From the NCBI GenBank assembly GCA_964016885.1, contig OZ024759.1:33294001-33358000 (forward strand): a DNA stretch of 64,000 nucleotides, read 5' to 3'. The notes below the pieces were generated by a model, which saw nothing but the letters and a program-made list of their open reading frames with translations, was not told the origin of the DNA and searched no databases. Below, in pieces: positions 18,066 through 63,634 of this stretch; position 1 is the stretch's first letter, and each line of letters begins with the position of its first letter. Source of the stretch: Eledone cirrhosa. Lineage: Eukaryota. Made by a program: the position numbers and the translations under genes.

Positions 18066-18260
18066 ATATAAGGGCGAGGGATTGGCAGTATCGGTAGAGG
18101 GTCGGACGCCATGCTTTGCGGCACAGTTACGTCCCTTTACGGACTGAGTTTTAATCCCGCCGAGGTTAACTTTGCCTTTCATCCTTACGGGGTCGATAAA
18201 ATAAAGTACCAGTAATACACTGGCATAATTGCTGGCCTTGTGCCAACAGTACAAACAATG
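18066..18260 (+). mobile_element. Full-length tRNA-derived SINE with Meta-like domain
   Basis: A-box-like tggcagtatcgg; B-box-like gagttttaatccc; Meta-like ttaactttgcctttcatccttacggggtcgataaaataaagtaccag. 15-bp TSD atacctatcttatat (18051-18065 and 18261-18275). Confidence 0.92.
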
Positions 18261-18297
18261 ATACCTATCTTATATTGATGTACACACACACACACAC

Positions 18298-18399
<102 letters not shown>

Positions 18400-20950: not shown

Positions 20951-21069
20951 TTCCCTCCCCTCTCTCGCCCTCTATGGTTGCTAACTTTGTTTGTGAGGTA
21001 CACTACACAACAACAAGCATCACAATAACGAGGATGGGGATAAACATCAATATAACAATAATAAAAATA

Positions 21070-21330
21070 ATAATTGTTTCTACGTTTGGCACAAGGCCAG
21101 CAATTATCCAGTCCATTACTGGTACTTTGTTAATAATAATAATAACAAGAATTGTTTCTGATTTAGGCACAAGGTCAACGATTTTGAGGACGGGAAAGTC
21201 GATTAAATCGACCCCAGTACATTACGGGTACTTAATTTTATCGACCCCGTAAGGATAACAAGCAAAGCTAACCTGGGCAGGAGGTTTGGACTTCTGAACG
21301 TAATGGACTGTAACTCTATGCCACAGAGCA
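21070..21330 (-). mobile_element. Meta-like SINE copy plus an extra tail fragment
   Basis: ggcacaaggccagcaatt...actggtactt; ttttatcgaccccgtaaggat. Confidence 0.8.
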
Positions 21331-22439
21331 TCTTGTCCCACGATATAATTCACTTTTTCTCTCACCAATAGTTGCTAGCTTTGTGTCTAAATTCGTATGA
21401 AATCCGACCCCAAAGAACGAGAATTTTTGTGGCAACATTGACACAATGACATTAGGTTTCATTATTCTATCGTCGACCACAGAAAATGGAGATGATACCC
21501 TGGGTCTCGAAGTAACGGGAATTCCACAAACATTTGATGTTTATTTAACACTTTAACAATTCTGCTAATTCTCCACCATTTTTGTTAACAATAATAACAA
21601 CAACATAAATAAAACAACCCCACTAACAAAGTCAAGTTTCAGTTAAATTTAATGTAATTTTGCTTTTAATTAAATTATTTCGTTAATTTCTCTACATGTG
21701 TATTTATAACAACTTTACTATTTTTCTTAAGTATTTTGTTTACCATTCGCATTTGTTTTCCTCATATATTTTTGTTGTGTTTGCTCTTTTTGTTGCTGTC
21801 GTTGTTGTTATTGTTGTTACGAAGTTTATTACTGTTAATTTTATTGTTTTTGATCTAGAGGTTGTTGTTGTTATGTTTATATTATTTTATTATATTTTAT
21901 TTTGTTTTGTTTTATCTCTCAATCGACATATTTTTTTTATTATTTTTTTTACTGAAATGCGGTTTTTTAAAAGATATATTTTTAATAAATATAGCTACAC
22001 GGCATTTCTCTGTCCTATTTATAGCCCATAATTTAGATGAATATTCCATACTAATGGCAGTTTCTTATTTTAATTAGTTTCATATGTTTCTTAATTGTTA
22101 ATTGCTCCTCTCATTAGTTCGCTGTTCCAGCCTTTAACGACTCAATGGACAGATATTTTTTTACACAGTTAATTTCAAAGAAACAACTTAAACGTCAAGA
22201 TTATAAATGGTTTCTCGGTTAAGAAGAGGGCCAGCAATTTATTACAAGAAGAAAGCAAGTCCATTAAATTTGAACCTATTACTTAACTTTTACCTAGATT
22301 TATGATCTCGGAAAGATGAAGACCAGGAAATGGCAAATGCAATCCATTAACGGAACTGTAAGATCATGTAAAACATTCCAAACATTTACCATATAATAAT
22401 TGCATGTACACACGTTTAGCTACGGAAACATTATATGTG

Positions 22440-23994: not shown

Positions 23995-24504
23995 TGTTGT
24001 GTGTAAATTCTAATTTTATTATTTGTATATATGTGTGTGTTTTTTTGTCATAGTCTTTGATACATAGTTTATGATGTTTCGTGTTTTTACTTTCTCTCGT
24101 TCATTGAACCGAAACAAGGTAATAATGCTTTCTTCATGTTTCATCGAGTATGAAAACAGTGTTGTGCCCCCTCCACCCACCCCTATTAATACTGATGAAT
24201 TTATTAAGATCGTCTCTTTTATGTATTAAAGGAAAACACAAATAGAATATGAAACACACACAAATATAGTTTGCTTTGTGCAGGTTTTATGGGAATATGA
24301 TATGCAAAGAAAAATATACAAAAAATTATAATTTTAATATATGGAATGGAAACTCTTTGACAAAATATCGTAAAGAATTACTCGCTTTTTTTGTTTAATT
24401 AGTATAAAGTAGAAATAGAAACAAATTTTTTCTCAAATTAAAATTAGAAAAAATATGTAAAATCTCGAAATATTTCAAAGCAAATAAAATAAATAATCAT
24501 ATAA

Positions 24505-24535
<31 letters not shown>

Positions 24536-24717
24536 TAACAACACCAACAACATGCATATCTATAACAATCATCATCGTCCTATCACAATATTGTAATAAT
24601 TAGCTTCAATATTATCATTATAAATATAGTAATAATAAAAATAACAAACACACAGCTATAAACAATAACAATAAAAATAATAATAACACTAGCGATAATA
24701 AAAGCAATGAGGATGGG

Positions 24718-24737
24718 ATGAAGAAGAAGAAGAACGA

Positions 24738-24781
<44 letters not shown>

Positions 24782-24827
24782 AAAGGAAAGAAGAAGAAGA
24801 AGAAGAACGAAAGAAGAAGAATAAGAA

Positions 24828-24858
<31 letters not shown>

Positions 24859-24887
24859 AAGAAGAAGAAGAAGAAGAAGAAGAAGAA
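24718..24887. repeat. (GAA)n microsatellite
   Basis: Direct reading. Confidence 0.95.
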
Positions 24888-25380
24888 ATGACAATAGCAA
24901 CTACAATAACAATATAATTTGGTGGGAGGGAGGGGGTGATTCGTCCATAAACATGCTTAGCCCTTAGCCTACAGATTTACTGTCACCTTAAATTACTTTC
25001 ATACAGTTTCCTCTCTCCAGTATGTTAGCAATGTTATATCGCAGACAAATCAGGATTTGTTGTTGCTTTTTTACCGCTTCTACCTGCAGTCATAAAATTT
25101 CAAGTCTTTTGAAGGTGAACATTAACTGCCTTTAATATCTCCATGGTCCCAGAGAGCTTACACAGAGCATGTCAATTGTCCGACTCTGGCGGATATTTTT
25201 TGAAAAGAAATTGAGACACAGAAAACGAAGGTTTTATTACTGTATTACAAAAAATAAAGTTTTATATGAGATAACGAAAGAACTTGAGCTGTTTATATCC
25301 AGAGGTAATTGTGTTGAGAGAGAAAGAGAAAAATTACGCCACAGAAATAGGTCTGAGTAGTTTGTCAAGCAGCATATGTA

Positions 25381-25519
<139 letters not shown>

Positions 25520-25616
25520 GCGTGTGCGTGTTCAAATCACGGCTCAGAAAAACCTCTTTCTTCGAGCTATTTAATTGTAAGAGACTATTTTGAATTTCTA
25601 ACTCAATATATACCTT

Positions 25617-25693
<77 letters not shown>

Positions 25694-25823
25694 TAAAAGG
25701 AATTCCAACTTTGTTTGATTTACTCGTTTTATTTACAATCCTTTAACATTTATAATGGTATTAGAATGAAATAGTATGGTAGAATATTAAATGTTAAGTG
25801 TTCTTGAACAAGTACTTTCATGC

Positions 25824-25936
25824 TTTCGCAATCTTCAGTTTCATATGCTGTGGTGATAGTCAAGTTTGCAATTTTCAACTGTCGAAAATTGCAAACTTGA
25901 CTGTCACCACACATTATGAACCTGAAGATTGCGAAA
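25824..25936. repeat. ~113-bp near-perfect palindrome (MITE-like hairpin)
   Basis: Arms 25824-25876 and 25884-25936 are reverse complements with a few mismatches; 7-nt loop. Confidence 0.85.
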
Positions 25937-25948
25937 TATATATATATA

Positions 25949-26027
25949 CAGGGTGTACCCACCAAAGTGTGTATACTTTTCAGTAATCTGCTTTTGAGGT
26001 GTGTATACGTTTGTTGCGACATCGTGC
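25949..26027. mobile_element. Degenerate ~80-bp Tc1/mariner-type MITE
   Basis: Starts TA-CAGGGTGT (Tc1-like terminus); the right end is a decayed inverted copy; TA flanks. Confidence 0.4.
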
Positions 26028-26364
26028 ATATATATATATATACATAAGTGTGTGTGTGTAGCTAACGGAAGTATGTACTCTGCTCATCTGTGTTCGAATG
26101 TTCATAATAGGAACCTAGATAACCATTCAGTGAGTGAAGAAATAGACAAAGCTATGTCTGTTCTATTCGACTGACTTCGTCTCCTAATTATAAATATATA
26201 TATATATATGCATGCATGTATGCATACATATACAGACATACATACATGCATATATACAATGTCCTCTTTCAGAGTCATATTTTTTTAAAACCAATTTTAA
26301 ACTACTAATATATTCGAGCTATAGAGACAGCTGTATAATATGTGGAACACTACAGTAAAGATAT

Positions 26365-26528
26365 TTACATACATATAATAATATATGTGTACAATATGTG
26401 TACATACATATAATAATATGTGTACAATATGTGTACATACATATAATAATATGTGTGTACAATATGTGTACATACATATAATAATATATGTGTACATTAT
26501 GTGTACATACATATAATAATATATGTGT
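26365..26528. repeat. Minisatellite of ~31-35 bp units, ~5 copies
   Basis: tacatacatataataatatatgtgtacaatatgtg repeated. Confidence 0.9.
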
Positions 26529-26669
26529 AGAAAGACACGCCGCACACATCCTCACTCCCACAAGACTTTAGATGCATACATGCAAACATCAAAACACTGA
26601 CACCATGAAATATCTATATAGACAAATATATAGGCAGTCAACACACTATATTTTAATAACTTTACACTG

Positions 26670-26722
<53 letters not shown>

Positions 26723-26879
26723 TTATTTATTTATTTATTTATAAACGCCACGAGAGTTTAACACAGTTGCGTATCTGATCTGAAATATGTGTGTCCATGT
26801 GTACACACACACACACACACATATATTTGAAATTGTATAGGCACTTGAAGAATGCCCATATATATATATATATATATAT

Positions 26880-26948
<69 letters not shown>

Positions 26949-27309
26949 GTGTTATATATATAGCTATACACATTAAGTCCGTTATACATAGACACATACC
27001 TACAAACATTAATTTAATGTATACAATATATTTACTTAAGCATGTGTGTGTATGTGTTTGCTATGCTATTGAGTATATATGTGTGTGAATGTATTCTATA
27101 TTAATATATTGAACTATATTTACAAAACCTGGTAAATAAAAAAAAAAACTAATTTAATTTTCTCTTCTTTTTTTTCTGATAAATATGTTTTTTAATATAT
27201 TCAGAAAGCCATAAGGAATTGTCACCTGACGAGAAGTGTACTTTATATCTGCAATGGCTGTGATTTCGTTCCCAGATAAACATAATTTCTCATTATTTCT
27301 GGTGCCATT

Positions 27310-27662
27310 TCGAGCACTATTCTTTGCGGCATGTAGGTACGTTCATTCCCGTTCTGATTTCAAATTTCTCCAAGGTTAGCTTTGCCTTCCATCCTTACAG
27401 GGTCAGTAAAATAAAGTACCAGTAACGTACTGGTTCGATTTAAGCGACATTCCCCTACCCCAAAATTGCTGAGCTTGTGCCTATAGTAGAAACAGTTATT
27501 GACGGTAGAACGTCAGACACTATGCTTTGCAACATCGTTATGACCGTTTAGGTTCTGAGTTCAAATCTCGCCAAGATTAGCTTTGGCTTTCATCTTTACA
27601 GTACCAGTAATACACTGGAGTAATTGCTGGCATTGTGCAAAAAGTAGAAACAATTATTGACG
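27310..27662 (+). mobile_element. Tandem pair of Meta-like SINE copies
   Basis: ttagctttgccttccatccttacagggtcagtaaaataaagtaccag, then a second copy ctgagttcaaatctcgcc...gtaccagtaatacactgg...gtagaaacaattatt. Confidence 0.8.
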
Positions 27663-28094
27663 GTGTTGAGTACTGGTTTTCACGTGATGTGGTCAATTTT
27701 GATTGATTCTTTATGGTGTCGTTAAAATAAATACCCGGGGAGGATTTAATCGGCCACGTCCAACCAAACTATTGAACATATGTCTCAATTAAAAAATCGT
27801 TATTCATATTGATGATTCTTTTCTGAATTTACCCGGGGAAACATGTTTTAAGAGAATGAGGAATGGTGTCTAGCGAAGGGCTTCTGTTTGTCTCCTCTTT
27901 CATCACAGTCTCTGGTTATTTTATTAGAATCTAACATTAAGCTCGGCTGGAATCAGACCCAGATGGATCTTGGATCTAATTAGGTTTATTTACAATAGTA
28001 TATAACTCTGCTTATTAATCCGTATGGTGAGCAAATGGGGTCCCGCATGCTGGCCTCCCCACAGCCCTGGCGGGTAGGCTGGAGAAGGCGATTG

Positions 28095-28519
28095 CCCGGA
28101 GGATGGTAAGGGAGATGCGCTGGATGGTAAGGGAGATTCCCCGGAGGATGGTAAGGGAGATACGCTGGATGGTAAGGGAGATTCCCCGGAGGATGGTAAG
28201 GGAGATTCCCCGGAGGATGGTAAGGGAGATACGCTGGATGGTAAGGGAGATTCCCCGGAGGATGGTAAGGGAGATTCCCCGGAGGATGGTAAGGGAGATA
28301 CGCTGGATGGTAAGGGAGATTCCCCGGAGGATGGTAAGGGAGATACGCTGGATGGTAAGGGAGATTCCCCGGAGGATGGTAAGGGAGATGCGCTGGATGG
28401 TAAGGGAGATTCCCCGGAGGATGGTAAGGGAGATGCGCTGGATGGTAAGGGAGATTCCCCGGGGGATGGTAAGGGAGATGCGCTGGATGGTAAGGGAGAT
28501 TCCCCGGAGGATGGTAAGG
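28095..28519. repeat. GC-rich composite minisatellite: 16-bp core ggatggtaagggagat plus a 5-nt or 8-nt linker (21/24-bp units, 19 cores, the last one partial)
   Basis: Linkers are gcgct, acgct or tccccgga; the cores are invariant. Confidence 0.97.
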
Positions 28520-28861
28520 CAGAGCCATTCCAAATCGAGAGACTCACACCTGACCAAACTTCGAAAGGTTCGACGCTATATTTTCATCTATCTCAGTAAC
28601 TGGGTAAGACGCGTGTATTACTGGTATAACATCATATACATTTTAACCATCTCTCTCCCTCTCTCTTACTCTCTGTCTCTTTTATATATATATATATGTA
28701 TGTGCGTGTGTATGTGTGTATGTGTGTGTGTGTGTCTGCGTGTATCGATATACTATCAACAAATACAATGACTTGTGTGACTCTTCTAATATTATTGATG
28801 CACCTCTTGGGTCTCCATACAATTGATTTGTTCTATTGTATATTAATGGAGAAAAACACAG

Positions 28862-28895
<34 letters not shown>

Positions 28896-28937
28896 GTGTA
28901 TATATATATATACACGTGTATATATATATATATATAT

Positions 28938-28983
<46 letters not shown>

Positions 28984-29061
28984 GTGTATGTATATATATA
29001 TACACATATATATATATATATATATATAAATACACATATATATATATATATATATATAAAT

Positions 29062-29108
<47 letters not shown>

Positions 29109-30221
29109 TATGTATGCATATCATGTATGTAAAAAAATTAATATACATAAATATATACATACACACGAATAGTCACACACAGATATAGATATATATATAC
29201 ACGCATATATATATATAGATATATATATATATAGAGAGAGAGAGAGATAGCGGAAGAGTGAGTGTGAGAGAGTGAGACAAAGCGATAGTGGTAGATATAG
29301 CGAGTGAGGAGAGAGGAGAAGAGAGATGGCGGGAGAGGGATAGGGGGCAAGAGATAGAGGGAAAGATAAATAGATAGAGAGATACAGAAAGGGAGAGAGA
29401 TAGAGGAACAGCTATAGAGGTAAAGAGACAGAGATAGAGGGACAGATATAGAGATAAAGAGACAGAGATAGAGGGCAAGAGATAGAGGTAAAGCTATAGA
29501 GAGAGAGGAAAAGATAGAGAGATGTAGATAGAGGGAGAGCGATAGAGGTAGATAGAGGAAGAGAGATAAAAGAAAATGAGATAGAGTTACTAGGAAACAG
29601 AGTCAGCACTAAAAGAATACAAAGAATAATAAATTATTTTTCAGGCCCTACTCTTTTGTAATTAATTAAGAATAGTACAAGAAATAGATTTGGCTGTAAA
29701 GTCTTGCCAGAAAGATCTGTTTGATTTTCACTTGAATTCCACAGGGTGTAATTTATCTTAGCACAAGGCTCCTGCCCCACCACCAACACAACAACCACCA
29801 CAACCATCACCACTAGTCTATTAAATCTTCACAACAAAAACCGTGATTAGTCTTTTTAATAAAATACTTCATGAACAAGAACCGTAATTCATTGCATCCC
29901 GAAAACGTAGCCATTTTATTTTTATCTACATCCATTAAAGATAGGGAAGCAAGGAACTGATCAAACGACGTATATGCACTTGAACTATGAATTCAAAACT
30001 AAATAGGTAGGTAGGACAGTGTACTGGGAAATATGAAGGAAATTGCCTCGTCCCTTCATCATATATACAATTATATATGTGCATATGTTCATATATATAT
30101 ATATATATAAAATTAGAATTGGTGCACCAATTCTAATTTTCAATTTCTGATTGACCGGTAACCGCTCTGTATAACCAGTTCCTTATTAATACTAAAATTC
30201 TATAAGAATCAAACATTCATG

Positions 30222-30316
30222 ATTTTCAGCAAACAGGTGGAGTAGTTAGCTTTGATAAGCACCAACAAGTGCGAAACAGAAGTATGTCAGCTTTATCTCC
30301 CCTGTTTGCTGAAAAT
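30222..30316 (+). ncRNA. Type I hammerhead ribozyme, U3-A8 core variant, extended stem I
   Basis: Stem I agct (30248-51); core UUGAUAA (30252-58); stem II gcac-caacaa-gtgc; GAAA (30273-76); stem III ACA/UGU with loop gaagta; GUC triplet (C17 = 30288); stem I' agct. The distal stem I is a perfect 16-bp helix, 30222-30237 with 30301-30316. Confidence 0.8.
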
Positions 30317-30417
30317 TAAAGTAAGTGAGAGTGTCACTACTCTAAATCAATAGCGTAAGGTCTTCGAAATGCTTTTAATTAAACATACAGTTTATTGCAA
30401 AATACACAGTATATACA

Positions 30418-30452
<35 letters not shown>

Positions 30453-30502
30453 CTTATCCCGGGTTCAATCAGGGTAACCGCAGTAAGTAAGGTACTCAAT
30501 AC

Positions 30503-30594
<92 letters not shown>

Positions 30595-30699
30595 CACAAG
30601 AGCAAGAATGAAGGGTTCGTTCCACTGACATGTCTTTAAAAATGTGGCTTGTTTGCATAATTGCAAACGATTCGAATGTTATTATTAACTTTGTTAACT

Positions 30700-30800
30700 T
30701 TGGTTAACTTTGCCTTTCATCCTTCCGGGGTCGATAGAGTAAAGCACCAGTAATGCATTGGGTAATTGCTGGCCTTGTGCCAAAAGAAGAAACAATTATT
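30700..30800 (+). mobile_element. Meta-like SINE 3' half
   Basis: ttaactttgcctttcatccttccggggtcgatagagtaaagcaccag...ggccttgtgcc. Confidence 0.85.
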
Positions 30801-30879
30801 AATATTAAAAAAGCTCAGATTTTATTTATGATATATATTTATATATATATATATATATATTTGTTTTGCGTAATAATAG

Positions 30880-31110
30880 TACCACTGATGATGATGTAAA
30901 TGTGCAACGAAAGAACTTTGAGAGACTATATATATATATTTATCTCTGTATTTTTAACCGCTAAACATTGATAAACATTGATTGCCAAATAAATTTACTA
31001 TGGAGATATAAAAGTTACAGAAGCGAAAGCCAACCAAACAGTGAGTGTGTTCTGTTATTATTTCTGGCAATATTATTACAACAATATGACCCTCCCCAAG
31101 TATAACAATA
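30880..31110 (+). mobile_element. PLE family A pLTR, diverged copy with a degenerate minimal hammerhead
   Basis: CTGATGA (30885-91)...GAAAgaacTTtg; ends in atgaccctccccaagtataacaat, like the 55.9-kb copy. Confidence 0.65.
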
Positions 31111-31118
31111 TATATATA

Positions 31119-31223
31119 ACCTCCCACATCTCCGACACCAACCACGCCCTGCGCCTTTTCGACTCCTTCACCTACCTACCCGGCCCACAGCCATTCCTCT
31201 TCACCATAGACATCAAGTCCCTC
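31119..31223 (+). pseudogene. Penelope-like reverse transcriptase fragment (motif A region)
   Basis: TSHISDTNHALRLFDSFTYLPGPQPFLFTIDIKSL resembles the PLE RT pattern PSYIxDT...LxTxDVxSLY. It lies directly after a pLTR-like segment. Confidence 0.75.
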
Positions 31224-31341
31224 CCCCCACCTACCCCCACTCTCCTGAGCGTGAATTTAATAAACATTTATTGTACTGCCTCTCTGTTCTGTCCCTGTTC
31301 AAAAAATGTTTCATTATATATATATATATATATATATATAT

Positions 31342-31774
31342 AGGAAAGAGTAGGACCCCGACGGCTAATTCTGAACTAAATGAACATTTTTATCCCGGTA
31401 CATGAATAGCCGAGCTTCTCAGGGGGTAATTCCATACATGGTAAAAGTGATTGTCACAAGGATTGGTCAAAAGTTTGTTGTTGAGACACATAATTCTATC
31501 ATGGCAATTTGTGGAAGGAAGGGGTAGCTGAACTTGCCAGTAGAAGAAAGAGGGAGAGGGAGGGGAGGAAACTCAGCCGTGCGTTGATAGTGCGAACTAC
31601 AGCAGGATCCTAAGGATAAGAGGTCAAGAGAAGTATACTAGGGAGGGGGAGGGGGATGGGGAGGAATTAGAAACAGTAAGTAAATCAATATGGAGTAAAT
31701 GTATAGAAGAATAATAAGTATTGAGTACTTTGGTGCGTTATGGTCCATCTGGTTCCTTACCACATTTCCTTCGT

Positions 31775-31775
<1 letters not shown>
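31342..31775. mobile_element. PLE-like family B element (inverted hammerhead part plus a shared tail)
   Basis: Minus strand: accccCTGAGAAgctcggctattc...gaattagccgtcggggtc. The plus-strand tail aagtattgagtactttggtgcgttatggtcca...cttcgtta is shared with the 43.6-kb and 57.95-kb copies. Confidence 0.65.
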
Positions 31776-31823
<48 letters not shown>

Positions 31824-32881
31824 ATGAAGCAAACATTGTGTACATCTGGTTGACGGATCATCGACTGTTTAAACTACATCACATCCTAAATTCATGGCCC
31901 CTATTATTCATTCGGTCCTAGTTACCAGCTTTGTGTAGTGTTCAATCTCTACTCTAAATCATGCAGATCTTTCCCTCCATATACCTGTCGTCCGCGTCAC
32001 TCAGGGCCTCTCTATACACATTTCTTCCCAAAATTAGTTGACCTGCAATAGTCTATATACATATCAATTGCTTCAACCCCTGTTGATTTTGGAGAGCCAG
32101 TGACGGTCACGGTTAGACTACCTTTTTCCGTCAGTCTAAGCAAGTAAAGAAAATGAAATAAAACATCGTATTTCGTTTGTAACGAAACATTGTAAAACTT
32201 CGTATCTTTTCTCACTTCAGTGTTGCTGTTTTACATCAGCATAACCTCAAAAGCAGTGAACCTCTATCAAAGTATACATTTGTATTAGTTACTGCTCCTG
32301 TATTTCTATTTCTGCGTGTGTTTGTAAATATATATTTATCTCTATGTGGGTATATTTGTAAATACGTATGATTTTGTATGTGAGTATATTTGTAAATATG
32401 TATGTACATCTCTGTGGGTATATTTGCAAACATATATGTATTTGTATGTGGGTAATATCTGTGATATGCAGTTATGAATACATATATGGTTATGATAACT
32501 ATGTATTTCTTTCTACTGTCTCTAGTTGCAATTGAGCTTATATTTATATGTTACTGTGTCTATATATAAAACATTTATTGTTGGTGGATGTGTGTGTATT
32601 TCTAACTGGTTGCATCTTTGAATGTATATATTCTTTTGACCAAGGGTGTTTATATGCTTTTTTGTGAAGTAGGTTTTTTTGTTATTGTATTTGTTCCTGA
32701 GTTTCTTTGTAAGTAAGTGTGCCTTTGTGTACTTTTGAACGTGTGTTCCATTGTAGCCGAGTATCTTTTTTATAGCCGCAAATATTTAGCCATTTTGTGT
32801 ATGTGTATGTTCTTTTTAATTTTTTTTTTTTTGCATCGATGTATGCCTTTGTAAATGTATATGTGATAGTAACTACGTGGC

Positions 32882-32973
<92 letters not shown>

Positions 32974-34095
32974 ATAGTAGTTATGTATGTATATATAAAT
33001 GTATATGTGATAATAACTGTATATGTATATGTGATAGTCACTATGTGTGTATATGTAAATGTATATATTTATTTTCAATGTGTATTTATTTGTGGCAGTT
33101 TATGTGTTTGTGGTTTTGAATATGTTAGTATTTGTGAATATGTGTATTTCTACAAACGTGTGCGTCTTTGTAAATGTATATATGTTTGGAACTATGTGAG
33201 AATATGTAAATATCTGTGTATGAGTTAAAACGTTTGTCTTTCGAAATGTGGTCGCTTGACTCTATCTCTATGAGGTCGGCGTGTCTTTGTAAAATGGCCG
33301 CTATATGTGTTGCACAAAACAAACACTTCCATAAAGTTCGTACAAATTTAATATAATAGATCGAACAAAAATGTATAAATACTGATTGAAAATCTTTTAT
33401 TAATCTGGTTTACACTTAGAACTTCGATCTTCCATTATCAACCAATTTTATCCACTTATTTCTACACGATTTCATTAAATGTTTTTCGGAGTAAAAAAAA
33501 AAAGAAAAAGAAACACCATCCCTCACTAGTTTTCTAGTTTTCATCCATAAAGTAGAAACGAAAAAAAAATGAGAGAGAGAGAAAAAAAGAAAGAGGATTG
33601 AGACGAAAATAGAAAGGAAAGAGAAGATGAGAAAAAAGAAATATTCTTGATTCATTGTGTTTCAGACTTAACCATTATTCTCATCAGCAACCGTAACATC
33701 ATGATCAGAATCAGAATCATCACCATCATCATTAACAAAACTCCATAGATTACCAATACAAAAACACTAACGTCTCCAACTTCCCCACCAACATCTACTG
33801 TAATCACTAACTACTATAACTACCAGCACGGCTTCCAATAGACTATTACCAAAGTCACTGATACTACAACTGTGATTCCCATCCTTAGTATTAACCATAC
33901 TACCATTGAGACTACCATAAATAACAGAGGTTGGAGTTGGACTGACATCCTCATTCATTGCCAAATTCCAAAGGGAAAATATTTCTCAATAAAAAGCCTT
34001 TATTTGTTTTCTATTATGAAGAATGAATTGATGAATAAAGCATAGTAACGGGATATCATAGTATACCACTCTCACAATAGATAGATGATACTGTC

Positions 34096-34192
<97 letters not shown>

Positions 34193-34447
34193 TTTTTACG
34201 TATACACACATATATATATATTTACATATATATATATATAAGAACGTTACTTCTCGCTCTAGCACAGCTGATACGTAAAGGTGCGCGTATATAGATACGC
34301 ACACACACATATATATATATATATATACACGTATCCGTATATATATATATATATATATATATACACGCACACACATATATACGTATACATAATAATATGG
34401 ATATGAATATATGTGTGTATGTATATACATTTGAGTGTACGTATGAT

Positions 34448-34590
<143 letters not shown>

Positions 34591-34842
34591 CGTGCATGTA
34601 TATGTGCGTGTGTGTGTGTGAGTGCATGTATGTATGTAAGTGTGTGTGTCCATCTATATGATTAGCAGACTGTAAATGGCAATTGCTTAATCTGCTGAGC
34701 TATAAACTAGGCAGAGATATTTATGGTAAAATGTTTGCAATTATTGTGTTTATATAATTTCTCGTATTCCCTCAACTGAGTAAAAATATAATGGAATAAA
34801 GGGATTGTTAGGGTTAAAGGAAACCATGTACCACAATATACG

Positions 34843-34887
<45 letters not shown>

Positions 34888-35055
34888 GTGTATATATATA
34901 TATGTATATATATATAAATATGTTTATATATATGTAAATATACATGTATATATACATGTGTATATATATATATACATACATATGTGTAAATATATATGTA
35001 TATATATATAAATATATTTATATATATGTATATATATATGTATATATATATATAG

Positions 35056-35097
<42 letters not shown>

Positions 35098-35109
35098 ATC
35101 TATATCTAT

Positions 35110-35179
<70 letters not shown>

Positions 35180-35256
35180 ATATATATATATATTTATAGA
35201 TAATTATATCTCATACTTATTTACATATACATACATCTCTATCTCTATCTATCTAT

Positions 35257-35350
<94 letters not shown>

Positions 35351-36888
35351 CTGTCTGTATGTAAGTGTGTTGTACGGGTCAATTTATATCTTTGTACTGA
35401 ATATAAGGAAATTTTGTTTATAAGCTGCAACTTCATAGTAACTCTATTTTATAATCTACTTTAACATAACACAGCATAAGAGATGCAATAAATTACGTAT
35501 GTGATGATCATGAGAGCCAATACAACATAACAATAGCAACAACAACAACATCAAACAGTAAATATCAACCACATCAATAACAATTACCAGAACCTCTGCC
35601 CCACCACCAACAAAAACAAACTCCGGCTACCATCACCACCAACATGAAAACCTAAAACCTGCTCTACTATTACCGAATTACTACACCAATAGCGAACCTA
35701 TTGAGCAATACCAATAACATGAAAGGTCTACAGACTCCGAGAATAATAACAATCTACAAAACTAATACCAACATGAAAAACAAGATTAAAATCTCCAGCA
35801 ACGTTGTATCTCGTGTTACTACCGTTAAAAACCTTTAAAATGAAAACCTCTATCACCAATACTATTGCTACTGCTACTAACAACAACCAGCGCTTCTTAC
35901 GCAAACACACAAAAAACGTCGTTACCAATGCCACTAACACCATTACTAACATCGCTACTAACAACCGATTTACACACTTATATCGTTACATATCCTCTGC
36001 AACTCTTAAATCAATCAACATCGCAAACATCAATACTGGTTTGTATCAAATAACAAATTTCAAAACAAAATGAAAGAACTATAAAAAACAACAACTGACC
36101 AATACCCCAAACATGGTAGCTATATATATGTACTATACTAAGACCTGCTAAACGTAGCAATTAAATTGTCTTTACAGTGAGATTTTTGTTGGTGTTTTTT
36201 ACGTCATAAAATATAGAGCTAGTTACCGATATATATATGGCTATGGTTGTGGTTACTTAGATGATAGGTTATCGTAGGGTTATACGAGAGCAACGACTGA
36301 TATCAAACAGAACACTGACACCTCAATAGACAATCTGAAATCAGCTTTAACCCGGTGGCAATATATACAACACCAACACCAAACAAACAAACTACAGCAC
36401 TTTGCTCCATAAATCACACTAATCATATTATTGCTAGATAGCAAAAAACAGTAAAAATAGAAGACAACATAATATGGAAGGCTCATAAAACATTACAAAA
36501 TTGCACCATCTTACTAGTATGATTTTCATATATATATATATATATATATATATTAATTTAACAGTATTATTTTATTTTAAAAGTGTTGACTCATGATGCA
36601 CCATTACCATTACAAATATACTACACAATATATGTATTTCCATACAATAGAACTAATGTTTGTTTAAAATTCAGGAAAACAAGTTGAAATATAAAAGAAA
36701 AAAACGTGTTATTTATTGTAAGGACAAATAATTAGATCTACACTCATGCCAAATGTTTCAGTATAGGTTTAACGGGAAAGGAATGTCACTCGTTCAATGA
36801 TGTGACCCGTGGTAATGTGTAAACGTTATAAAACTATATACTGTTATAGGTCATTTTGAATGGGAATATATCTCGGGAGAATTTGTAC

Positions 36889-36939
<51 letters not shown>

Positions 36940-37096
36940 TATAAACACACACGCACACACACACATATATATATACATATATTATATATATGTATTGCCA
37001 CCGACGGGAATTGTTGCAAAAACTTTAGTCGAAGACCGTTGGCATCATTCACAAATATATTTATACTATATTTAATCTATACACACATATACACGC

Positions 37097-37192
<96 letters not shown>

Positions 37193-37280
37193 CTGTGTGA
37201 GGTATATATATATATATATATATAATATAAATATATATATAATATATATATATAATATAAATGTATATATAATATATATA

Positions 37281-37711
37281 TTTATTAAAATAACAGATTA
37301 AAGTTTAAGCAAAGAATCGCTGCTTTCACCCTTAACGGGATCTTCTGAAACTAACAAAGTCAATCTGTAAACGCAGAACTGGATATTTCAAAAAACGTTG
37401 CAACCGGAGGAAGACAGGAAGACGATACTTTGGTTCGTGGTAACGTTCGCTGGCAAAGAACGGGAAAAAACGAATTATACGTCATTAATAGGAGCGGTGA
37501 AAAACAATTACGCGCAAAGACAAAACCACATTTATGGTATAAAAGAGGTCGTAGACTAATGTTCTCTTAGGTGGTGCATAGAGACGTTCTCTGGCAATGA
37601 ACGAAAAAACGAAGATAATAAGTCATATGTGGAGCGTGGAGAAGAATAGCACGCAAAGACAAAACCACGTAAATGGTATAGCAGAAATCGTAGACTAAAA
37701 TTCTAACTAGG
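37281..37711 (-). mobile_element. Interspersed repeat family C, longest copy, with an internal ~141-bp tandem duplication
   Basis: Copies at 6157-6307, 50292-50363, 56307-56351 and 57357-57612. The minus strand carries a hammerhead-like vestige CAGAAGA-tccc-gttaa-gggt-GAAA and ends aataaa before (TA)n. Confidence 0.8.
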
Positions 37712-37849
37712 AGACCAAATGAATCTCCACTACAGAGTTAAGGTTTTGCGTATGCTTGTGTATGTACGTATCTGTTTGCGTGTATGTATTTATTTGTTTC
37801 TATTACTTCTGTATTGTATTTATTTACTTTGTTCTTAACTCTGTAGATT

Positions 37850-38106
<257 letters not shown>

Positions 38107-38290
38107 AATATATATATATGTAATATATATATATAATATATATATATATATACATATATAATATATATATATAGTATATATATATATATAAAATATAGTA
38201 ATAATAATAAATTTGAACACTAAAACCCAAAGAGGGCTATATATATATATATATATACATATTTTTCTACGATTCTCGCTGAATTATATT

Positions 38291-38346
<56 letters not shown>

Positions 38347-38879
38347 TTAACAGCATACTGAATGTATGGTAAGATTTATTATTCACATTATTCAATTGTT
38401 GAACAGTTAAAGAATATATATATTATCAAATTAAATGTTACAAACTGAAATTTCATTTTATTTCTCTTTAAATCAATTGTCACTTTCTTAAACTTTCAAG
38501 ATTTGCTAAAATCTCGGCGTTCCTAATAAGAACCGCACAATTTTATCATCCGACATTTTTAATTTTATGTAATTATTGAATTTTTGTCCAACGAAAACAG
38601 CTTTTACAAAGTTTCATATCGCAGAAATAAATTTTGAAAATGTTTGTCTTGTCCTTGTTTATGTTGGAGGTAATTCTCTTGTTCGAATTTGTTTCTTTTT
38701 TTTTAAGCTTTTCTTCTTATTCTTCCTCTTCTTTCATCTTCTTCTTCCTCCTTCTGTTTCTTCTCCCCCTCCTCATTTTTCCTTCGTCTCCCTTCTTCCT
38801 TCTTTATTCCTTCATTTTCTTTCTCTTTCCTCCTTCTTCCTTCCTCTGTTTCATCCTTCTTCTTCCATCTCCTTCTGCT

Positions 38880-39075
38880 TGCGGCAGACACCATGCTGTG
38901 AAGCAAAGAGCTTTGACCCTTTTTGATCTAAGTTCAAATCTCGCGGAGGTTAACTTTGCATTTCATCCTTACGAGGTCGACAAAATAAAGTACCAGTGAC
39001 GCACTGGGGTCGATTTAATCGACTTTCCCTCCTCCAAAATTGCTGGCCTTGTGCCTATATGAGAAACCATTATTA
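38880..39075 (+). mobile_element. Meta-like SINE
   Basis: agttcaaatctcgcggaggttaactttgcatttcatccttacgaggtcgacaaaataaagtaccag...ggccttgtgcc. Confidence 0.88.
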
Positions 39076-39450
39076 TTCTCATGATTCATGTTTTTAAATC
39101 TTAGACACCTAGATGTTGAAAGATGCGGGTATTCCTGTTACGATGCATTCAACATCAAGTTGACAAAATTCCCTCACTGCATCCTTTCCTGTGTTTATCA
39201 TAGTTAAACTTTCCTTAAAATAATGTTGTACCAAATTTACATCCATACACACAATACATACATCCAAACAAACATTCGTAAATACAATACATAAGTAAAT
39301 TTAGGTACAAGGCCAAATGTTAGGGCAGGGAAAGTCACACTCACTGTTTGTAATAACTGGAAGTAAATTGAACTGAGAATGTTAGGAGACAGAAAAAGTA
39401 CACGGAGGAATTTTTTCAAACATTCTACTAATGTTGCCAACACAACACCC

Positions 39451-39451
39451 T

Positions 39452-39540
<89 letters not shown>
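39451..39540. repeat. Compound (CTA)n(CGA)n microsatellite
   Basis: Direct reading; the two units differ by one base, in register. Confidence 0.95.
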
Positions 39541-39680
39541 TGGAGAAGAAGAAGAAAAAAGAAAAAGAAACACAAGAAGAAAAGGCAAGATATGAAAGAG
39601 AAAGAAAAAGACCAAAACGTTGGAAGAATATAAAGATGTTCATATGTATATACATACATAAATAAACAAACAACATATAC

Positions 39681-39724
<44 letters not shown>

Positions 39725-39730
39725 AAATAA

Positions 39731-39812
<82 letters not shown>

Positions 39813-40363
39813 CACATATATATGTGCATGTGTATGTGTTAATCTGTGTGTGTCTCTGCACATATGCACCAATTTTACTTTCATATAAAAAGTGTTTTTT
39901 TAAGTTTTCCCTATTCTAATATTTTCTATACAAATTTAAATTTCATTATCTCTTTATAGTTTATCATAATATTTTCTTTGAATTAATTCAGTACATCGCT
40001 CTGTTTATTTAACGTAATAATTTTAACCACTTCGACATTTTATAGTAAAAAAATTTTAAGAAAAAGTAACAAAAAGAAATCAGAAAAAAGGGGGAATAAA
40101 TTTTCGATAAATTTGTTTAAGCTTTTAAAATCCCAATTCCTGTAATTTTCTCAATCGTTAGCAAATGTAAACATATGCTACTTCAGGTTTATTGTCCATA
40201 ACAGACTGCTGAGACTGTAGAAGTGTGTAGAGAAATCTATTTGGTAGAAAAGAAGGCAAGACGAGAATCTAATGGATAGAATTTAGACTTGTTTCTATTT
40301 TTATAAGCCTATGGTCGATATGGTAAATTAAATAACATGTCTTTGAGTAACTGGTGCTGAAAC

Positions 40364-40441
<78 letters not shown>

Positions 40442-40550
40442 ATGTGTATATATAGTCATACATGTATATATATATATACATATATACATATATATACACA
40501 TGTATTGATATATATATATACATGTATTGATATATATATATATATATATA

Positions 40551-40622
40551 TTAGGTCGTAAAATATGAAATTTGTAGAAAATTTGTAGAGAAATAACTTT
40601 TTACAAAATTCAATACTTGACG

Positions 40623-40628
<6 letters not shown>
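40551..40628. mobile_element. ~78-bp mariner-type MITE (MADE1-like architecture)
   Basis: Left end TA-ttaggtcgtaaaatatgaaatttgtagaaa versus reverse complement of the right end TA-ttggatcgtcaagtattgaattttgtaaaa; inserted in (TA)n. Confidence 0.55.
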
Positions 40629-40715
<87 letters not shown>

Positions 40716-40791
40716 TGTTTGTTAAAATAATCAAATTAAATTAATGCAACAGTTAAACATACATAGGTATAATAAGGTTGTACCAAAGATC

Positions 40792-41265
40792 CATAAGATT
40801 GACAAGTCGACCCTAAATATGAGTAAGAGCTCTAGGAAAGCCATGAAGCCCACCACATCTTTTAAATTTTGAAAGGTTTATATTCATAAATTTTCATTGT
40901 ACTTTTGTAGTTATCTCGGTGGCCGAGTTGGAGGAATTACAGACTATGGTGATCCTAGTCTAAAGTTCGATGCTGGTCGGGAGTAGGGTTCCCGGTAAAC
41001 TTTTTCAGTTTTTTTTCTTCTATGGGATGTAAAATAAAAACTGAAAAAGGTTACATGTACCTCTTGACCAGGATTGAACCTAATGCCGTGATCTCCACCG
41101 TCTCTAGTACCTACCGGTAGGCTACAGAGACAACTACAAAAAGCTCGTGAAAATGTATACTTATAAACCTACTTTCAACATTTTCAAAACAAAACGATGA
41201 GGGGGCGTTCATGGGTTTCTTAATGTTATTGCTACTACTTAAGGTCCACTTCTAAATCGTTTATG
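40792..41265. mobile_element. Decayed fold-back element with ~230-bp inverted arms, each carrying a tRNA-like unit
   Basis: The arms align by eye along their length. tRNA-like units at 40914-40982 (+; A box tggccgagttgg, B box gttcgatgc) and 41060-41131 (-; B box ggttcaatcc), each followed by T-runs. Confidence 0.65.
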
Positions 41266-43474: not shown

Positions 43475-43670
43475 ATAGGAAATAGTATGACCACGACGGC
43501 AGAGCTCAAGCCGTTTAGACGGCTATTTCTGTCCAGATATAGCCGTCGAAACGGCTTGAGCTCTGCTGTTGGGGGTCATACTTTTTCCTATTTCCTACTC
43601 TACTACCCTAAGTATTGAGTACTCTGGTGCGTTATGGTCCATCTGGTTCCTTAGCACAATTCCTTTGTTT
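43475..43670. mobile_element. PLE-like family B palindromic element plus tail
   Basis: Imperfect palindrome 43475-43591 made of two half-hammerheads, followed by the shared tail. Confidence 0.75.
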
Positions 43671-43689
43671 TATATATGTATATACAAAC

Positions 43690-43723
<34 letters not shown>

Positions 43724-63107: not shown

Positions 63108-63451
63108 TAGTTGATTCCTTGAATTGCTGGTGCAGAGTCCTGAGCCAGCTCTCTGCGAAACAGGCGTATCAGGAAGGTAAACAATATATATATGTATATA
63201 TTATGTCCCTATTACGGGCGTAAATAATCTTGTGCAATGTTCTGCTAATTCATCGTGGTCCAGAGGCCAAACAACAATAACAACAATTGGAACCACAGAT
63301 AACTAGAATGGAAACCACGTTCCTAGTTATCGATCGACAGTGGGTGTTCTAGAATTCTCGCGAAATTAACATGAACAGACGCGTATGCCCTTAAGACAAT
63401 TCATAGCAATATTTAACGCGCTACAGTATCCCAAAAATAGCCATTAGTATA

Positions 63452-63634
63452 TTTGTTTCTACATTTGGTACAAGTCCAGCAATTATCCAGTACATTACTG
63501 GTACTTTATTTTATCGACCCCGTAAGGATGAAAGGCAAACTTAACCTTGACGGGATTTGATCTCAGATCATAAAGGGAGGTTCCTATATGCTTCAAAGCA
63601 GCATGGTGTCAGACTCACTACCGATACTGCCAAG
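63452..63634 (-). mobile_element. Meta-like SINE
   Basis: actggtactttattttatcgaccccgtaaggatgaaaggcaaac...accgatactgccaa. Confidence 0.9.

Follow-up and report, generated by a model that had tools for sequence, protein, structure and literature searches.

A U3-A8 type I hammerhead motif in an abundant (TA)n-flanked repeat of Eledone cirrhosa, probably the tail of a Penelope-like element

The hammerhead motif and its repeat unit

The stretch of DNA analysed here (the window, 64 kb of AT-rich animal-type DNA, rich in microsatellites and short repeats) carries on its plus strand, at 30248-30292, a type I hammerhead motif with a U3-A8 core. Three helices surround the junction and the ends lie in stem I, which corresponds to type I topology. 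Read from the outside inwards, the 5' strand of a perfect 16-bp distal helix I (30222-30237, paired with 30301-30316 with a pair probability of 0.95 or more) is followed by a bulged U (30238), a middle helix of 4 bp (30239-42/30297-300), an internal loop (30243-47/30293-96) whose 5' side is predicted to make a tertiary contact with loop 2, and the proximal part of stem I, AGCT/AGCT (30248-51/30289-92). The core UUGAUAA (30252-58) supplies U3, U4, G5, A6, U7, A8 and A9, with a Watson–Crick 3-8 pair between U30252 and A30257, and leads into a 4-bp stem II (GCAC at 30259-62 with GUGC at 30269-72, including G10.1-C11.1) that is closed by a 6-nt loop 2, CAACAA. The GAAA at 30273-76 corresponds to G12, A13, A14 and A15.1, the last of which opens a stem III that is 3 bp long in this copy (30276-78/30285-87, with a 6-nt loop, GAAGUA). 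The GUC triplet at 30286-88 ends in C17 (30288, in hammerhead numbering), 3' of which cleavage is predicted, and 30289-30316 comprises the 3' sides of stem I, of the internal loop and of the middle and distal helices. All the core letters (U4, G5, A6 and A9; G12, A13 and A14; the A15.1-U16.1 pair; H17) are present in the 30248-30292 motif. The sequence-only reading had placed the hammerhead elements in register, and this holds on the plus strand for core, stem II, GAAA, stem III and GUC; for stem I, it was right about the internal loop and the perfect 16-bp helix but had passed over the 4-bp helix and the bulged U30238 that intervene. Its statement that U3-A8 is a natural covariant of C3-G8 agrees with the relevant passages of PMC3088659, where the covariant is described as active, and of PMC4209133.

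A strict descriptor, which demanded only Watson–Crick pairing at 3-8, gave one match in 128 kb (both strands of the window) as against a mean of 0.01 per shuffle, with any match at all in 1 of 100 shuffled windows. With a looser descriptor that permitted one core mismatch and bulges, 30248-30292 was still the top match, and one real match compares with 0.275 per shuffle at equal score. Hammerhead models, to which the sequence-only reading had pointed as a check, gave a divided answer: no match is listed for the hammerhead region at Rfam gathering thresholds, but at the E-value level Hammerhead_HH9 (RF02275) aligns with 30238-30307 at 25.3 bits (E = 0.0009), its gathering score of 52 not being reached. 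The fold z-score of the hairpin region (-6.8) was rejected as evidence for a ribozyme because it is accounted for by the distal helix, the opposite strand scoring -7.0 and the junction alone -0.76. In the predicted ensemble of the window copy, the active secondary structure represents 6% and lies 1.7 kcal/mol above the ensemble, stem III has a pair probability of about 0.1, and a wrong pairing of U3-U4-G5 with 30277-79 is possible. Outside the hairpin, every frame is broken by stops and the unit lacks structure (z +0.7).

The hairpin lies within a non-coding, (TA)n-flanked unit of some 310 bp (30109-30420), whose existence had been claimed from the letters and is borne out. On its left, a (TA)n tract (30091-30109), likely part of the insertion target and preceded by flank at single-copy depth, runs directly into a perfect palindrome of 32 bp at 30109-30140. 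With arms of at least 14, the window has three perfect palindromes of non-simple sequence, this one included. The left arm of the 32-bp palindrome (30109-30124, minus strand) is a 16-bp inverted duplicate of 30125-30140 and would represent a Penelope-type inverted 5' junction. The repeat body (30125-30420, plus strand) has 296 nt, 33% GC and no ORF, and is a candidate 5'-truncated 3' end (pLTR/3'UTR) of a Penelope-like element (PLE). Downstream of the hairpin it contains GTAAGT (30321-30326), a splice-donor-like hexamer that is kept in diverged relatives (with loose ends at 30317 and 30350); PLE pLTRs can contain introns. The 3' tail (30350-30420), which is the deepest part of the family, abuts a right (TA)n tract (30421-30451).

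The 3' end of the repeat is fixed at (TA)n. In raw reads, depth inside the (TA)n bin was 389 and 541, as against 413 and 599 just before it, i.e. 90-94% continuing, and the figure for contigs (42% continuing into (TA)n) is lower because contigs break there. Among the joints listed for 29900-30430, none connects the end of the unit to its start at family depth, and the sole one leaving the 3' end (30430 to 30268) has a depth of 8-13, as for a single locus. There is no second unit in tandem, the unit being single-copy in the 64-kb window, a result that is firm for the locus only since arrays might go unseen if their units were longer or spaced by (TA)n. No reverse transcriptase (RT) or endonuclease was found among the 111 ORFs of the window by Pfam family match, pattern scans of metagenome, viral and prokaryote genome contigs gave 0 matches, and no convincing host exon was found in the 64-kb window.

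An abundant and variable family

Four public sequencing runs of one organism, representing at most two samples from two studies, were aligned to 29900-30430; the depth profile of the repeat begins at 30124, with 30080-30123 left out, and one of the runs (X5) is DNA RAD-seq. No RNA run was listed as containing the sequence, a result that has no bearing on expression. The left flank is at single-copy depth (3.4-8.3 in runs X1-X3, with 0-1 differences in 180 nt), and between 30124 and the right (TA)n contig depths add up to 19,000-750,000. Over the ribozyme the sum is 24,000-41,000, from 2,320-2,592 contigs per run, which is 3,700-6,900 times the left flank, or 120-220 times were every base counted 31 times, and 4,100 of 12.5 million raw reads align to the repeat. 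Because summed depth is no true copy number, the abundance of the 30125-30420 unit is given as roughly 10^2-10^4 copies, which makes it a very abundant repeat. In contigs, depth over the 3' tail exceeds that over the ribozyme by a factor of 5-25, as expected from 5' truncation, although this is not a clean truncation gradient since contig depth falls over the ribozyme and then climbs again 5' of it. More than half of the raw reads (2,195/4,100) are less than 90% alike. Sharp read ends in X5 at 30142, 30196, 30317 and 30377/30380 were considered as element ends or cleavage sites and rejected; all of them fall on AATT sites which, in a RAD-seq run, makes them likely library cuts.

Variation across 30222-30316 was assessed on 40 of the 125 variant rows, and every variant figure for this interval refers to these. 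They affect 7 of 23 unpaired non-core positions, 3 of 62 paired positions and none of the 10 core positions, an enrichment in unpaired positions (Fisher p = 0.002) that weakens to p = 0.02 with indel rows (five of which fall in helices) and to p = 0.056 without the window copy's own loop 3 changes. The three varying paired positions among the rows listed all retain pairing: 30248 A>G gives a G-U pair, while a C-G pair of stem II becomes U-A through 30260 C>T (261/411 and 267/456 X5 reads) and 30271 G>A (247/404 and 250/442), two changes that were counted position by position and have similar frequencies. In a loose-end consensus of 10 contigs (agreement 0.87), the fourth pair of stem II is also switched and compensated. 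In 1 of 3 contigs (0.72), the same stem I is followed by CUGAAGA, which is only suggestive of a C3-G8 sister form in the family. No compensated change in the distal helix appears among the variants listed. The compensated stem II, the unvaried core (in the rows listed) and the putative C3-G8 sister form point to selection on the catalytic fold at the level of the family, and the expectation that other copies would keep helices and core is upheld by a core devoid of variants (40 of 125 rows) and a stem II that covaries. Pairings in other copies were read off the variant table, folding having been done on the window copy.

The window copy departs from 97-100% of X1 contig depth at 14 of its 296 positions (4.7%). 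Three of these near-private changes (30281, 30282 and 30284, against about 99% of contig depth) sit in loop 3, where they remove the fourth pair of stem III and its palindrome. With the majority letters, an extra G-C pair yields a palindromic 4-bp stem III, ACAG/CUGU, with a 4-nt loop, and a palindromic stem III is the form that permits dimer cleavage according to the passages cited from PMC4209133 and PMC6765202. The copy is off the majority at two further positions, G30245 being C in most copies (56% of X5 reads, 74% of X1 depth) and C30266 being A or U in about 85% of X5 reads. Since the majority C30245 gives the UAC of the HH9 stem I bulge and the majority loop 2 variant, CAAAAA, is the HH9 consensus loop, the window copy has likely lost predicted tertiary-contact bases at 30245 and 30266. 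Describing this copy as 'apparently intact', as had been done, is thus too strong, because loop 3 and two predicted contact positions differ and the active structure holds only 6% of the ensemble. The 72 positions that are paired or in the core are spared by all 14 near-private changes (p = 0.018, or p = 0.095 with 30284 counted as paired), so that descent from a functional minor subfamily may be envisaged, as against pure decay. With its weakened stem III, the window copy is likely to be a passenger; we put its chances of measurable cleavage in vitro at about even, and a role for the host is very unlikely.

Origin of the repeat

The unit is probably the 5'-truncated 3' end (pLTR) of a (TA)n-targeting PLE or of a non-autonomous derivative. 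A hammerhead in a Penelope-type repeat tail is an ordinary arrangement in animal genomes, and two traits expected of such a tail are found here: a sense hammerhead near the 3' end (192 nt from it in the repeat unit) and insertion at (TA)n with a fixed 3' end for the 30125-30420 unit. The 16-bp inverted arm is a candidate inverted 5' copy, the depth profile starting at 30124. PMC8557442, as far as cited here, describes PLEs that are truncated at the 5' end, carry inverted 5' copies and target (TA)n; its tables list a (TA)n target for 26 of 27 Hydra-clade families and, in 23 of 24 families, have the hammerhead entry beginning 87-210 nt upstream of the consensus 3' end, a count that left out one 5'-end row and one antisense row. 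Of the two origins that the sequence-only reading had offered, the PLE pLTR gains from the (TA)n, the fixed 3' end and the 192-nt distance, and the retrozyme-like unit is the weaker half because the unit is single-copy and no end-to-start joint is listed.

If the unit is a PLE tail, a GIY-YIG endonuclease would nick the (TA)n target and the element's RT would copy the RNA starting at the fixed 3' end (target-primed), reverse transcription being halted after about 296 nt with the 16-bp inverted duplicate produced at the 5' junction; a non-autonomous derivative would borrow these enzymes from a PLE. We infer the mobilizing element itself, since the 111 ORFs show no RT or endonuclease in Pfam and the collection scans were blank. 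The family is predicted to self-cleave and, in source elements, a cut after C17 would free element RNA from read-through or tandem transcripts. Monomers might be assisted in cleavage by contact between loop 1 and loop 2, or dimers might form through the palindromic stem III and cleave as such, and U3-A8 would stand in for the C3-G8 tertiary pair. Trimming of element RNA by hammerheads is proposed in PMC4209133, and the role of PLE ribozymes is called unclear in PMC8557442, in the sections relevant here.

The unit could instead be a dispersed monomer of a non-LTR retrozyme, whose tandem arrays would be transcribed, cut by the hammerhead, circularized and reinserted by PLE enzymes, which is possible but doubtful. 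A non-coding unit of 296 nt with 33% GC is within the range that PMC7229834, in the part cited, gives for retrozymes (170-400 nt, <45% GC), and the canonical scaffold, with its long helix I interrupted by an internal loop, its 4-bp stem II and its 6-nt loop 2, is of the retrozyme type described there rather than the minimal PLE type. The match of the majority loop 2, CAAAAA, and of the UAC bulge with C30245 to the HH9 consensus is in the same vein, and both dispersed retrozyme monomers and a pLTR ancestry are documented in a preprint (bioRxiv 10.64898/2026.07.22.740005, in the portion relevant here). Difficult to reconcile with this scenario are a 3' end that is fixed instead of permuted, the lack of an end-to-start joint at family depth among those listed (the 30430-30268 joint being at 8-13) and flanking parts that are unstructured (z +0.7), whereas retrozyme circles are highly self-paired in the description of PMC7229834. 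Nevertheless, the two readings lie close together since the same preprint makes retrozymes pLTR derivatives. An expressed, non-autonomous, (TA)n-targeted retrozyme-like family in which a fast, tertiary-stabilized hammerhead switched from C3-G8 to U3-A8 and became dominant, with a surviving C3-G8 sister family, is unlikely. Were it true, there would be thousands of natural variants for asking why C3-G8 is almost universal and, the host being a cephalopod, a long ADAR-type duplex would lie beside A8, where editing could abolish cleavage.

A relic, whose helices persist by recent common descent and in which neither the window copy nor the majority cleaves, would fit with an Rfam score at half of the gathering threshold, with a stem III pairing of about 0.1 and the possible mispairing of U3-U4-G5 with 30277-79, and with the divergence of 2,195/4,100 raw reads (<90% alike). 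In addition, the results cited from bioRxiv 10.64898/2026.07.22.740005 include in vitro cleavage for just 1 of the 9 Xenopus retrozyme dimers that had been predicted, which calls for caution over any claim of activity. However, compensated stem II pairs, an unvaried core (40 of 125 rows) and the C3-G8 sister form argue for selection, and U3-A8 ribozymes are reported active in the relevant part of PMC3088659, which makes a relic improbable. Domestication as a cis-regulatory ribozyme in a host transcript, comparable to the intronic HH9/HH10 of amniotes, is very improbable: HH9 is indeed the best Rfam model and the window copy's own changes avoid core and helices, but this copy is one among very many, lies in a microsatellite beside other insertions and has no convincing host exon within the window.

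Known hammerheads and neighbouring repeats

A PLE tail, the origin that we favour, has its closest parallels in the hammerheads of Hydra-clade PLEs (Craig et al. 2021, PMC8557442), which in the tables cited are alike in (TA)n targeting, in a sense type I motif and in its distance from the 3' end (192 nt here, 87-210 nt there). Their stem III has 3-4 bp and is ACAG/CUGU, the majority form of the family here, in 4 of 26 rows, and an inverted 5' copy is recorded for one family, as compared with the 16-bp inverted arm here. They differ in being C3-G8 throughout (26 of 26 hammerhead rows), as opposed to U3-A8, and in that no ORF is linked to the unit here; the ribozyme of the sole octopus family listed there, Hydra-1_Obim, has a different sequence. 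About 1,300 U3-A8 motifs were found via the Cercyon PLE of Schistosoma mansoni (Cervera & de la Pena 2014, PMC4209133), one of them, in the part cited, with the same UUGAUAA. These heterogeneous motifs have more than 1,000, mostly single, copies, and the repeat here is also abundant. They are, however, minimal motifs, almost without helix III, with an extra base after A9 and without a loop-loop contact, whereas the motif here has a long helix I on a canonical scaffold. Non-LTR retrozymes, as described in the sections cited of PMC7229834 and bioRxiv 10.64898/2026.07.22.740005, are similar in size (~300 nt), low GC, canonical type I motif, thousands of copies and relation to PLEs, but are defined by tandem repeats and circular RNA, whereas the unit here is single-copy with a fixed 3' end and is known from DNA alone. 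The HH9 model shares the type I topology, the 4-bp stem II, the 6-nt A-rich loop and the bulged stem I. It differs by having six proximal stem I pairs (against four canonical ones here) and by the U3-A8 of the motif here, which scores 25.3 bits against a gathering score of 52, and HH9 is a conserved intronic locus, whereas the motif here belongs to a mobile repeat.

In cephalopods, 235 Rfam hammerhead matches have been recorded in a squid genome (PMC6962438) and active PLEs in Octopus vulgaris (PMC13282606), each in the passage cited. The repeat family is unreported in the octopus and cephalopod hammerhead literature searched, which covered few subscription papers and repeat databases; the supplements of PMC7229834 and PMC4209133 (file 1) may list cephalopod or canonical U3-A8 motifs. 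The U3-A8 core and the PLE-type context are each already documented, and the novelty is a modest one, namely that the scaffold which bears U3-A8 is canonical and extended and belongs to an abundant (TA)n-inserted family that perhaps has a C3-G8 sister. Our knowledge of hammerheads and PLEs is unchanged by it. Its interest is that an abundant animal hammerhead family is missed in its entirety by strict CUGANGA searches and at Rfam gathering thresholds, and that U3-A8 is now found on a canonical extended scaffold, the large published set consisting of minimal ones. With a possible C3-G8 sister beside it, the U3-A8 family would also be material for tests of the 3-8 pair and of a continuum from pLTR to retrozyme.

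Several other repeats of the window adjoin (TA)n. A second (TA)n-flanked family (43475-43690, 57827-58017 and 5746-5819, all plus strand, and 31342-31775) holds the 3' half of a hammerhead, with GAAA, a stem III of 4-5 bp, a palindromic GAGCUC loop and GUC. Three of its copies start within stem II or loop 2, and in two of them (43475 and 57827, the copy at 5746 being without one) there is a 50-60 bp fold-back centred at stem II/loop 2, as if the cDNA had self-primed on the stem II hairpin; these two fold-backs support the reading of 30109-30140 as an inverted 5' junction. Short (TA)n-ending tails (30451-30505, minus strand; 57195-57262 and 31716-31775, plus strand; 55381-55414) have GTATTGAGTAC in common, some 45-60 nt before the 3' end, and a word nearly identical to GTATTGAGTAC occurs near the 3' end of Hydra-2_Amil in the part cited of the supplement of PMC8557442. 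The tail at 30451-30505 adjoins the right (TA)n of the ribozyme unit in the opposite orientation. A third (TA)n-ending repeat is found on the minus strand at 37282-37380, 6157-6260, 50290-50360 and 56307-56360. A type I hammerhead can be drawn from its 37282-37380 copy with CAGAAGA (U4A) as the core, but was rejected because score and folding do not exceed those of shuffles.

On the plus strand at 31113-31235, after a short (TA)n, lies a 41-aa frame, of which the 37 codons at 31116-31227 look similar to Penelope/Neptune RT motifs; a PLE RT was not confirmed, the frame having no homologue, a single match to a low-complexity repeat protein and no Pfam match. An imperfect 113-bp fold-back at 25824-25936 adjoins (TA)n and is probably another inverted 5' repeat junction. 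At 49530-49934 (minus strand), a 135-aa frame that presumably resembles the C-terminal end of an RTE/CR1-type LINE ORF2 has no Pfam match. The window also harbours nine copies of a SINE-like repeat (5847-6011, 18068-18337, 21060-21340, 27322-27657, 30702-30860, 37843-37973, 38881-39074, 46913-47105 and 63446-63633), which we assume to be one known from octopus genomes, and a degenerate, MITE-like inverted repeat of about 470 bp at 40792-41265.
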